Notes under the pieces: generated by a model
Seen by the model: only the letters and a program-made list of their open reading frames with translations
What the model was told of the DNA's origin: nothing
Database searches by the model: none
Translations under genes and position numbers: made by a program
Part shown: in pieces, positions 19,362-21,073 of the stretch
How positions within the stretch are numbered: position 1 is the stretch's first letter
How the letters are laid out: each line of letters starts with the position of its first letter
Source of the DNA: Nitrospinaceae bacterium
GTDB lineage: Bacteria > Nitrospinota > Nitrospinia > Nitrospinales > VA-1
Assembly (NCBI GenBank): GCA_021604505.1
Contig: BQJC01000004.1
Coordinates: 304,581-368,580, forward strand
Direction of reading: 5' to 3'
Length of the DNA: 64,000 bases

Positions 19362-19389
19362 AGTTTAATCCTGTTTGAAAGTTTTTCCA

Positions 19390-20022
19390 ATGTCATTTAT
19401 TTACATGAAAATCCTCGAGTCCCGTCCTGAGCGATATGATTTAGGGATGGGTCTGTTGACTCTGGGATCGTTGACAAAAATTAAACGTCAAATTGCTGAC
19501 CATACACTTCCCGAAAACCGAGTCCTCGATTTGGGCTGCGGGACCGGGACCTTGGCGCAAATGTGCATTGAACGAGGGGCATGGGTGACAGGGGTTGATG
19601 CCAACAGCGGCATGCTTGAAGTGGCAAAGAGAAATTCTCCTTCCGCGAATTTTCTTAACATCAGCCTCAGCAATCTTGATGACCATTTGGAAGATGAATC
19701 TTTCGATATCATTTTAAGCACGCTTGCATTTAGTGAACTGACCCGCGCAGAAAGACTTCATGTATTAAAACAAATCAAAAGAATTTTGAAAAGCGGAGGA
19801 AAAGTTATTATCGGTGACGAAATCATTCCGGAAAATTTATTAGCCCGGTGCTTTTACTATGCCTTCAGATTACCCATGCAGCTTATTACGTGGATAATGA
19901 CCCAGAATACCACCAACGCGATTTCCAATTTTGAAGATGATGTGCGGCAGTCGGGCATGGAAATCGTCAACCGCAAGCCGTTTATGATGGGCATGTTTAT
20001 CCTTCTGGAAATAAAAAAATGA
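19390..20022 (+). CDS. Class I SAM-dependent methyltransferase
   Basis: SAM motif I VLDLGCGTGTLA, motif II-like FDIILS and motif III-like LKSGGKVIIGD are present. The start is ambiguous (TTG 19375, ATG 19390 or ATG 19405). The stop overlaps the next start as ATGA. Confidence 0.8.
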   Translation: MSFIYMKILESRPERYDLGMGLLTLGSLTKIKRQIADHTLPENRVLDLGCGTGTLAQMCIERGAWVTGVDANSGMLEVAKRNSPSANFLNISLSNLDDHLEDESFDIILSTLAFSELTRAERLHVLKQIKRILKSGGKVIIGDEIIPENLLARCFYYAFRLPMQLITWIMTQNTTNAISNFEDDVRQSGMEIVNRKPFMMGMFILLEIKK

Positions 20023-20888
20023 TCGGTTGGATTAAAGATATCTATCAAACGCTGTTTCGGTTTGCCCGGTTTCCGTGTGAACCCGAAACAATTGCCATTG
20101 GTAATCCCGACAAATCCTCTCCTGTCCTCGTCACATGCAATTTTGATTACACGGTCAGACATCTAAAGAATTATTTGGAAAAAGAGCAAATAGATTGCTT
20201 TCTTTTGGTGGTCAATACCAAAGGCACCAACGTCTGGTGCGCGGCGGCTGAAGGTATTTTTACCACCGAAACGGTCCTGGCCCATTTAAAGGTCTATAAT
20301 GTAAGGGAGTTGGTTGATCACACGCGTTTGATACTTCCGCAATTGTCTGTGGCCGGGGTGAAAAGAAAGGACCTCAAAGAACATGGCTGGGAAGGAATTT
20401 ACGGTCCCGTTTACTTTACCGATTTAAAGGAATTTATAAATAACCGTTTTACTAAAACCAGGGACATGCAGGCTTTAGAATATGGCTATTGGGAGCGTTT
20501 TAAAATGGGTCTCAGCCATGCGGTTTTCTGCACGTTGGTCTGTATCCTTCCAATTTTTCTTTTTGCTTCTGATTGGTGGCTTCAGGCCATCATTTTAGTC
20601 TGGTACTTTGCTTTCAGCATGCAATTGATTGAACATTTCATTCCCATTGATAGATTACTGTATAAAGGGCTGATCCTCACTCTGCCGATCCTGGCACTGG
20701 TATTGTCTTATTCAAACCAGCTCGTTGTAAATATCCAGGCATCGGTCGGGATCATTGCCCTGGGTGCTTATATTGGATTCGATGCCCAAGGTCATTCGCA
20801 TCTCGGACAAAACCAGCATTCAGGGAAATTGACTGCCGGGATTTTTGCATTTTTGGCTTTATTTTATGGAGGTTCCTTGTTGCTATGA
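20019..20888 (+). CDS. HgcA-like corrinoid-binding membrane protein
   Basis: 289 aa. The soluble N-half carries PVLVTCNF, the cap-helix-like NTKGTNVWCAAAEG (Cys codon at 20238-20240), RLILPQLSVAGV and YGPV. The C-half has about 5 hydrophobic helices. This is the HgcA architecture. Confidence 0.8.
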   Translation: MIGWIKDIYQTLFRFARFPCEPETIAIGNPDKSSPVLVTCNFDYTVRHLKNYLEKEQIDCFLLVVNTKGTNVWCAAAEGIFTTETVLAHLKVYNVRELVDHTRLILPQLSVAGVKRKDLKEHGWEGIYGPVYFTDLKEFINNRFTKTRDMQALEYGYWERFKMGLSHAVFCTLVCILPIFLFASDWWLQAIILVWYFAFSMQLIEHFIPIDRLLYKGLILTLPILALVLSYSNQLVVNIQASVGIIALGAYIGFDAQGHSHLGQNQHSGKLTAGIFAFLALFYGGSLLL

Positions 20889-21073
20889 AAAAGTTCGTGG
20901 ATTGGGACAAGATAGAGGAGGAAACATGTTCCGCAGAGGAAGCCTGTGAATGCACGAGAAGCAAATTGCAGTCACTGATTGATTTCGTGGTGGAATTATT
21001 TCCCAAGAAAAAAGAATCACCTTGTTGTGATGAAATGAATAAAATTGAAAAAGGCCAATGCAATGACAAATAA
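20885..21073 (+). CDS. Hypothetical 62-aa Cys-rich acidic protein
   Basis: The start overlaps the HgcA-like stop as ATGA. The protein contains CSAEEACEC, a vicinal PCC and GQC. There is no ferredoxin motif. Coding status is unproven. Confidence 0.45.
   Translation: MKKFVDWDKIEEETCSAEEACECTRSKLQSLIDFVVELFPKKKESPCCDEMNKIEKGQCNDK

Follow-up and report, generated by a model that had tools for sequence, protein, structure and literature searches.

The systems closest to the locus analysed here are membrane corrinoid proteins of two kinds. In canonical HgcA/HgcB, such as that of Pseudodesulfovibrio mercurii ND132, a corrinoid domain with a Cys lower ligand is joined to five membrane helices and HgcB follows; S-adenosylmethionine (SAM), not methyl-tetrahydrofolate, methylates the Cob(I) of the purified canonical complex directly and helper-free (Zheng et al., 2024; PMC11588087). 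The second kind comprises the fused HgcAB-like proteins (NCBIfam NF043039) of Pyrococcus furiosus, Methanococcoides methylutens and uncultured lineages. Nitrospina-like HgcA has been placed in the fused-HgcAB clade, hgcB is missing in all Nitrospina, and none of the hgc-positive Nitrospina has been cultured (Lin et al., 2023; PMC10083202). A gene context of MerR1, a UbiE methyltransferase, DUF169 and YHS has been drawn for Nitrospina scaffolds from Tara Oceans, with the suggestion of mer-like regulation (Villar et al., bioRxiv 10.1101/648329). Here we analyse such a locus in a stretch of 64,000 nucleotides (nt) from a Nitrospinaceae bacterium (assembly GCA_021604505.1, contig BQJC01000004.1, positions 304,581 to 368,580), hereafter the window, and show that its methyltransferase, CpaM, and its HgcA-like protein form an evolutionarily obligate pair that is sometimes a single polypeptide.

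The region is a Nitrospina-type 'hgcA-like' operon. It shares with the cluster of Villar et al. the MerR, DUF169, UbiE-type methyltransferase, HgcA-like and YHS genes in identical order, and its close homologues include proteins labelled Nitrospina or Nitrospinaceae; identity to the close homologues listed, most of which carry no label, is 80-90%. The Nitrospina gene arrangement is thus already published, and the CpaM family has already been named by NCBI, although NF043040 provides a name only ('hypothetical equivalog'). A 62-residue gene, the start/stop overlaps and the family-wide linkage are unmentioned by Villar et al. As far as the searchable literature shows, what is new is the near-universal linkage of the pair, its natural occurrence as CpaM-HgcA fusions, the absence of CpaM where a genome carries canonical hgcAB alone, and the definition of the 62-residue family. 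Neither a discussion of a methyltransferase partner of the fused clade nor biochemical data on methyl transfer from SAM to the corrinoid by CpaM turned up in the searchable literature, and the word 'methyltransferase' does not appear in Podar et al. (2015).

Other corrinoid systems offer further points of comparison. The corrinoid iron-sulfur protein (CFeSP) and MeTr of the acetyl-CoA pathway, and the MT1/corrinoid/MT2 systems of methanogens, also use a separate methyltransferase to load a dedicated corrinoid carrier. However, MeTr/MT1-type loaders are TIM-barrels acting with methyl-tetrahydrofolate or methylated substrates, whereas CpaM is a Rossmann-fold SAM enzyme, and CFeSP is a soluble protein devoid of a Cys ligand, although its corrinoid domain superposes on that of the window protein with a root-mean-square deviation (rmsd) of 1.4-1.7 Å. 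The reactivation module of MetH likewise carries out SAM-driven methylation of a reduced, protein-bound corrinoid, but it has an unrelated fold, lies in the same polypeptide, serves repair only and depends on flavodoxin as reductant.

CpaM and the HgcA-like corrinoid protein

The methyltransferase gene (19390..20022, + strand) encodes a class I SAM-dependent enzyme of 210 amino acids. The initial annotation of this DNA, made from the sequence alone, had proposed a profile search for a family regularly adjacent to corrinoid proteins, and the search returned a family named for just that association: the protein scores 252.4 bits against NF043040, 'corrinoid protein-associated methyltransferase CpaM' in NCBIfam (cut-off 180; model positions 1-215 of 216), and is the sole NF043040 gene of the genome. 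Pfam assigns it merely as a generic class I SAM methyltransferase. The open reading frame (ORF) opens at TTG 19375, which would give 215 residues; because homologues have 210 residues and all begin MS(F/Y)xYMK, the true start is most likely ATG 19390. SAM motif I reads VLDLGCGTG, and the protein carries the family-specific motifs YMKxLExxPxRYD and TQNTT. Across 18 diverse CpaM members, the window protein included, GCGTG, YMKxLExxPxRYDxGM, STLxFSEL, DExxP and TQNTT show little or no variation. Outside motif I the alignment has neither a Cys nor a His that is invariant, which makes metal binding by CpaM itself unlikely. Similarity to the arsenite and tellurite methyltransferases (ArsM, TehB) is weak, at 30-47 bits against cut-offs above 260, and covers the generic SAM-binding core only. 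The fold resembles Coq5 and membrane phospholipid N-methyltransferase; no solved structure of CpaM or HgcA was found, the matches being only to generic class I methyltransferases and CFeSP.

The HgcA-like protein (20019..20888, + strand; 289 amino acids; Pfam CdhD, 60.5 bits) has a corrinoid-binding domain at residues 1-150 and five transmembrane helices at residues 157-288. Its gene is the only CdhD-family gene of the genome, which also has the corrinoid synthesis genes cobS and cbiA/cobB and a MetH-like gene. The cap helix reads NVWCAAAE, with Cys74 encoded at 20238-20240. It departs from the cap motif N(V/I)WC(A/S)(A/G/S)GK of true HgcA in the high-stringency Hg-MATE definition (motifs listed in PMC10087281), ending in AE in place of GK. 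The protein scores 136.9 bits against true HgcA (NF040863; cut-off 275) and 232.1 bits against the HgcAB_like model NF043039, 'HgcAB-like fusion protein' (cut-off 285), covering only model positions 1-228 of 350. The ferredoxin motif CX2CX2CX3C is absent from the window protein, as checked also in its close relatives, and alignment with fused relatives places the fifth membrane helix at the ferredoxin position. Nor does hgcB lie immediately downstream, where the 62-residue ORF and the YHS gene are found instead; Pfam and NCBIfam scans detect no ferredoxin domain in either product.

The AlphaFold2 model of the HgcA-like protein (predicted local distance difference test, pLDDT, 88.4; predicted template modelling score, pTM, 0.75) comprises a Rossmann-like domain for the corrinoid, a cap helix spanning residues 72-77 (WCAAAE) and five membrane helices; Foldseek ranks the published HgcAB model 9a0b_A and the CFeSP corrinoid domain as its top matches. 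In a maximum-likelihood tree the true HgcA proteins form one clade (support 100/99) and all CpaM-linked proteins another (93/80); the Nitrospina type forms a long branch (100/100) nested among fused HgcAB-like proteins (inner node 95/86). The window protein therefore shares with the fused HgcAB-like proteins their clade, the N-V-W-C cap helix, the membrane domain and the CpaM partner, but differs from them in lacking the ferredoxin, having a fifth helix, scoring below their cut-off and lying on a long branch, and its operon has gained MerR, DUF169, 62-residue and YHS genes. It represents an offshoot of the 'HgcAB-like fusion' family without the ferredoxin, and not a true HgcA.

One further feature of the protein is the cytoplasmic loop preceding the last helix (residues 258-269; window 20790-20825), the sole low-confidence stretch of the AlphaFold2 model. 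This loop reads D-x-x-G-x-(S/T)-P in fused and Chloroflexota relatives and FDAQGHSHLGQ, with a His-Ser-His, in the Nitrospina type.

The two genes are joined by a four-base overlap, ATGA at 20019..20022 (+ strand), in which the CpaM stop TGA (20020-20022) shares bases with the HgcA-like start ATG (20019-20021). A second ATGA at 20885..20888 (+ strand) combines the HgcA-like stop (TGA 20886-20888) with the start of the 62-residue ORF (ATG 20885-20887). Both overlaps are exactly as the initial annotation described them, and 12 of 12 Nitrospinota loci retain the two, with variable flanking bases, in a junction alignment of loci L017-L027, from eight same-order genomes and three further Nitrospinota metagenome-assembled genomes (MAGs), plus the window. 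Protein identity among these loci is 72-93%. A Nitrospirae MAG (L028) has both overlaps too, the CpaM/HgcA junction being taken there from ORF coordinates. The three-gene chain at 19375-21073 that was originally proposed stands as regards its overlaps, but it probably begins at ATG 19390, as said above, and it continues into the YHS gene, whose start lies inside the end of the 62-residue ORF (an overlap of 11 nt from ATG 21063, or of 29 nt from TTG 21045). Four genes, cpaM, HgcA-like, 62-residue and YHS, are hence chained, and these last four genes of the operon are translationally coupled. Four-base overlaps are commonplace in bacterial operons and compact genomes, so that one overlap alone means little.

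Linkage of the two genes across genomes

To survey the linkage, a CpaM alignment was searched against one genome per species, and 80 returned loci were analysed, 57 of them with a strong CpaM match. At 43 of the 57 an HgcA-like gene lies directly downstream on the same strand, its start usually about 30 nt or less from the CpaM stop, and at a further 12, all from Chloroflexota, the two are fused in frame into a protein of about 540 amino acids. The remaining two are L054, which ends at a contig edge 75 nt past cpaM, and L078, an orphan. CpaM is therefore linked or fused to an HgcA-like protein at 55 of 56 testable loci in more than 15 phyla. These include Nitrospinota, Nitrospirota, Planctomycetota, Chloroflexota, Desulfobacterota, Myxococcota, Acidobacteriota, Gemmatimonadota, Bacteroidota, Firmicutes, Actinomycetota and three archaeal groups. 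The proposal of dedicated partnership would have been undermined had the adjacency been peculiar to this genome; it is instead conserved across many phyla.

Co-occurrence follows the same pattern. In a census of 502 genomes CpaM was found in 17, and all 17 carry the HgcA(B)-like type. Among 251 genomes from the phylum of a 'delta proteobacterium' (G041), CpaM is present in 15 and HgcAB_like above cut-off in the identical 15; among 251 from Chloroflexota (the phylum of G042), CpaM is present in two, both with the partner. None of the roughly 71 genomes with only canonical-type, lower-scoring hits has CpaM. The census genomes are related, so that the counts are not independent, but the pattern is without exception in the sample. 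Inspection of nine canonical-type hgcA loci revealed no CpaM within about 2.5 kb; eight have canonical hgcA-hgcB with the cap helix NVWCA(A/S)GK or NVWCSAGK, and the ninth hgcA lies at a contig end. The initial annotation had remarked that no dedicated methyltransferase is encoded beside hgcAB. This is true of canonical hgcAB, but the window protein belongs to the HgcAB-like clade, whose neighbour had already been given a name.

The two proteins also appear to have diverged together, their distance matrices being correlated over 52 loci with a Mantel r of 0.84 that none of 2000 permutations reaches. An AlphaFold2 model of a natural fusion of 541 residues is compact and of high confidence (pLDDT 90.2, pTM 0.87). 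From adjacency or fusion at 55 of 56 loci and co-occurrence in 17 of 17 genomes we conclude that CpaM and the HgcA-like protein are very probably working partners, as the initial annotation had supposed from the overlaps.

Several individual loci deserve mention. The fusions are all in Chloroflexota MAGs (L039, L040, L045, L046, L048, L052, L053, L057, L069, L072, L073 and L079) and have five membrane helices; at the eight with listed downstream ORFs, the fusion is followed by a separate ferredoxin-like gene of 79-104 amino acids (2x[4Fe-4S]-type, 8-9 Cys), and at L048 a contig end cuts the downstream region. L071 resembles a CpaM-HgcA fusion interrupted by a frameshift, and L115:2182-3828 (genome G240) encodes a triple fusion of 548 amino acids that joins a partial CpaM to an HgcA part and to a ferredoxin in which CX2CX2CX3C occurs twice. 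A second candidate orphan CpaM, L097, was rejected: a fused HgcAB-like gene is present there, masked by a run of N at L097:7690-7800, and is overlooked by scripts that discard X-containing ORFs; L097 is counted among the 43 loci with a downstream partner. At L078:5977-9168 (Streptoalloteichus hindustanus DSM 44523) CpaM scores 246 bits, and the next gene encodes 777 amino acids with a TauD-like dioxygenase region.

Regulator and accessory genes of the Nitrospinota operon

On the + strand the operon runs in the order DUF169, thioredoxin-like, CpaM, HgcA-like, 62-residue ORF and YHS, with a MerR gene divergent upstream. The MerR-family metal-sensing regulator (17819..18232, - strand; 137 amino acids; Pfam MerR, MerR_1 and MerR-DNA-bind) is kept beside the operon in relatives. 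Its best NCBIfam match is the Hg-type TIGR02051, at 120 bits against a cut-off of 150.85, with similar scores for CadR and CueR. The sequence between the divergent genes contains a MerR-type promoter (18241..18271, + strand) composed of TTGAAC, a 19-nt spacer and TACATT, the spacer enclosing a perfect 7-nt palindrome, CCTGTAG-ttg-CTACAGG. The promoter-scan program accepts spacers of 16-18 nt only and hence misses it; within the operon, the scan gave counts of promoter and terminator signals no higher than in shuffled sequences.

The first gene of the operon encodes a DUF169 protein of 236 amino acids (18323..19033, + strand; Pfam PF02596, 85 bits), which accompanies all Nitrospinota copies of the operon and none of the CpaM loci of other phyla. 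It is followed by a thioredoxin/glutaredoxin-like protein of 89 amino acids with a CPIC motif (19092..19361, + strand; Pfam Thioredoxin_3 and Glutaredoxin), which is a variable member, being missing or split over two frames in relatives. At L021:6598-6854 and L024:8354-8621 it is matched as two pieces that lie in different frames, a place where the annotation of the same contig (L118) has no gene. The gene is probably decaying or dispensable in some Nitrospinota.

Downstream of the pair, the ORF at 20885..21073 (+ strand) encodes a small Cys-rich protein of 62 amino acids, recognised from homologues and with no Pfam or NCBIfam match. It has a conserved head, MKKxxDW(D/E)...CECT(R)SK, and a variable, acidic, Cys-rich tail that contains a Cys-Cys in the window. 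The ORF is a real gene: its identity in relatives is 80-88%, independent gene callers annotated it on two circular contigs that carry the operon and are metagenome assemblies, not isolates, and the family has 15 cluster representatives among 1.84 billion proteins, all of 28-86 amino acids. An origin as a remnant of the HgcB tail was considered and rejected, since the family profile matches nothing in the fused proteins or elsewhere in the 80 loci, and a scan of the whole library returns only the 15 small proteins. In the Nitrospirae MAG SZUA-77 (L028:4895-5083) the 62-residue copy has the conserved head and a Cys-free tail, while the tail of the near-identical protein P0246 is Cys-rich, which suggests a frameshift in the MAG copy. 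The final gene encodes a Cys-rich YHS/TRASH-domain protein ending in GCCPTD (21063..21491, or from the alternative TTG 21045; + strand; Pfam YHS, 51 bits) and is conserved in this position in relatives and in L028. The MerR, DUF169, thioredoxin-like, 62-residue and YHS genes stand beside the pair only in Nitrospinota, apart from the one Nitrospirae MAG, which has MerR, 62-residue and YHS genes.

A variant of the operon occurs at L017:3008-3749 (genome G030, same order), where two additional genes lie between the thioredoxin-like gene and cpaM. One encodes a MerT-like membrane protein in which the motifs CCVGP and CCETP occur, with a Pfam MerT score of 32.3 bits (cut-off 32.9), and the other an HMA/MerP-like protein with a signal-like N-terminus.

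Proposed methyl transfer by the pair and its possible substrate

From the gene identities, conservation, linkage, fusions and co-occurrence described above we infer the following scheme, every chemical step of which, like the substrate, is put forward conditionally. The divergent MerR-type metal sensor would control the DUF169, thioredoxin-like, CpaM, HgcA-like, 62-residue and YHS genes. CpaM and the HgcA-like membrane corrinoid protein would together constitute a two-part methyltransferase, in which CpaM supplies SAM binding and transfer of the methyl group to cob(I), giving methyl-Co(III) with Cys74 as lower ligand. At the membrane domain, a soft metal bound to thiols would then receive the methyl group from the corrinoid, as a carbanion or a radical. 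For Nitrospinota, Hg(II) would be the likeliest substrate, delivered by the Cys-pair-rich 62-residue, YHS and thioredoxin-like proteins. Re-reduction of the cobalt would fall, in most other lineages, to a 2x[4Fe-4S] ferredoxin that is either fused or encoded alongside; the Nitrospinota form has its fifth helix instead. The scheme as a whole, in which CpaM binds SAM and loads the corrinoid, which in turn methylates a thiol-bound soft metal, probably Hg(II), seems to us about evenly poised between right and wrong. Loading of the corrinoid by CpaM is the step that we slightly favour, and the identification of Hg(II) as the Nitrospinota substrate is tentative.

The direct methylation of Cob(I) by SAM in canonical HgcAB provides a precedent that supports the loading step (PMC11588087). 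The absence of conserved metal-binding cysteines from CpaM and the one-to-one coupling of the two genes also speak for it. The initial annotation had taken canonical HgcA to receive its methyl group from folate, and had offered SAM as a departure from that rule; the folate view is now superseded, and because canonical HgcAB is itself methylated by SAM, SAM as the methyl source of the window pair is no longer surprising. The link to metal is supported by the MerR-type regulator, by the promoter with its 19-nt spacer and by the MerT/MerP-like genes of L017.

A number of observations nevertheless weigh against this scheme. Since canonical HgcAB reacts with SAM unaided, a helper is chemically dispensable and CpaM might act otherwise. 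Two organisms with fused HgcAB-like proteins, Pyrococcus furiosus and Methanococcoides methylutens, produced no methylmercury in culture (PMC4646819, PMC5893877), which lowers the likelihood of Hg(II) as the substrate of the clade. The Nitrospinota form is without a ferredoxin, though each carbanion or radical transfer would require the cobalt to be re-reduced. The regulator falls below the curated Hg-MerR cut-off and is almost equally near to the Cd/Pb and Cu types. In profile searches of the source genome MerT was not found and no MerA rose above cut-off; MerT/MerP-type genes, as MerT-like and HMA proteins, were seen in the variant operon L017 only, and the MerT score there is itself just under the cut-off. 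The orphan at L078 is a bona fide CpaM in a genome with no CdhD-family gene, and is the sole real exception to the linkage. Finally, the pTM of the natural fusion speaks to the packing of its domains and not to the orientation of the SAM pocket toward the corrinoid.

It is conceivable that CpaM is a repair enzyme only, which uses SAM to return oxidised cob(II) to methyl-Co(III) as the reactivation module of MetH does, a textbook precedent, and that the routine methyl group reaches the HgcA-like protein directly from SAM, as in canonical HgcAB, or from another donor. That canonical HgcAB reacts with SAM helper-free speaks for such a role, and inactivation of the cofactor should be frequent in Nitrospinota, which are exposed to oxygen and no longer possess the ferredoxin domain. 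But the linkage is equally strict in anaerobes that retain the ferredoxin, organisms with canonical hgcAB face the same repair problem without CpaM, and the one-to-one coupling and the fusions point to a partner that takes part in catalysis stoichiometrically, not to an occasional repair factor; we therefore regard a pure repair role as unlikely. We are equally sceptical that CpaM acts in tandem with the corrinoid protein on an atom or product other than cobalt (a thiol ligand, a second methylation or a metalloid), an idea already raised by the initial annotation. The thiol-rich cluster would suit it, as would the weak profile matches between the Rossmann core and the arsenite and tellurite methyltransferases. 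These matches, however, with scores far under the cut-offs, are confined to the generic SAM-binding core. Arsenite methyltransferases rely on conserved cysteines, and CpaM, unlike them, has no invariant Cys beyond GCGTG.

A role without any metal, in which the pair methylates an organic substrate embedded in the membrane, for example a lipid or a quinone, and the MerR, YHS and Cys-rich genes are a Nitrospinota-specific addition or a co-regulated separate function, would account for the absence of the DUF169, thioredoxin-like, 62-residue and YHS genes from the pair's neighbourhood outside Nitrospinota (save the one Nitrospirae MAG, with its MerR, 62-residue and YHS genes). It would also fit the resemblance of CpaM to Coq5 and membrane phospholipid N-methyltransferase, and the failure of the tested fused-HgcAB organisms to methylate Hg. 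However, the Cys-on cap helix is found in true HgcA as well, some of the fused proteins bear Cys-rich C-terminal tails, four Nitrospinota genes are translationally coupled under a MerR-type promoter, and one variant operon includes MerT/MerP-like genes, so that we consider a non-metal role quite improbable. As for the adjacency and overlaps being incidental operon packing with no functional link, to which the frequency of four-base overlaps in compact genomes might lend some colour, we give this almost no credence: it is effectively refuted by the comparative data, namely linkage at 55 of 56 loci, 12 natural fusions, co-occurrence in 17 of 17 genomes and the Mantel correlation.

The two-part methyltransferase acting on a soft metal can be extended to the Nitrospinota operon as a whole, which might be an oxygen-tolerant, ferredoxin-independent, mercury-induced methylation module in which CpaM loads the corrinoid from SAM and Cys-pair chaperones (the 62-residue, YHS and thioredoxin-like proteins) deliver Hg(II) or methylmercury, although we think this doubtful. 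If it were true, Nitrospina would be a source of methylmercury, or of volatile dimethylmercury, in oxygenated subsurface waters of the ocean; Nitrospina-type hgcA-like genes have been described as the predominant candidate mercury-methylation genes of the open ocean. More generally, CpaM/HgcA(B)-like pairs would then represent a widespread class of SAM-to-carbanion, 'polarity-reversing' methyltransferases for soft metals. Since the whole HgcAB-like clade comes with an obligate SAM-binding partner that is sometimes fused to it, activity tests of its proteins should be made together with CpaM and, in the case of Nitrospina, with the small Cys-rich proteins. The CpaM partner also offers a handle on where SAM binds, a gap left by the 2024 finding on canonical HgcAB. 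In addition, CpaM could serve as a survey marker, its presence indicating the HgcAB-like clade and its absence true hgcAB, which would curb the over-counting of 'mercury methylators' in metagenomes.

The operon is carried by nine of 41 genomes of the order, the source genome included. The regulator and operon (window 17700-21300) have a GC content of 0.38-0.48, against 0.50-0.57 in the flanks. The low GC content and patchy presence fit acquisition by transfer or frequent loss.

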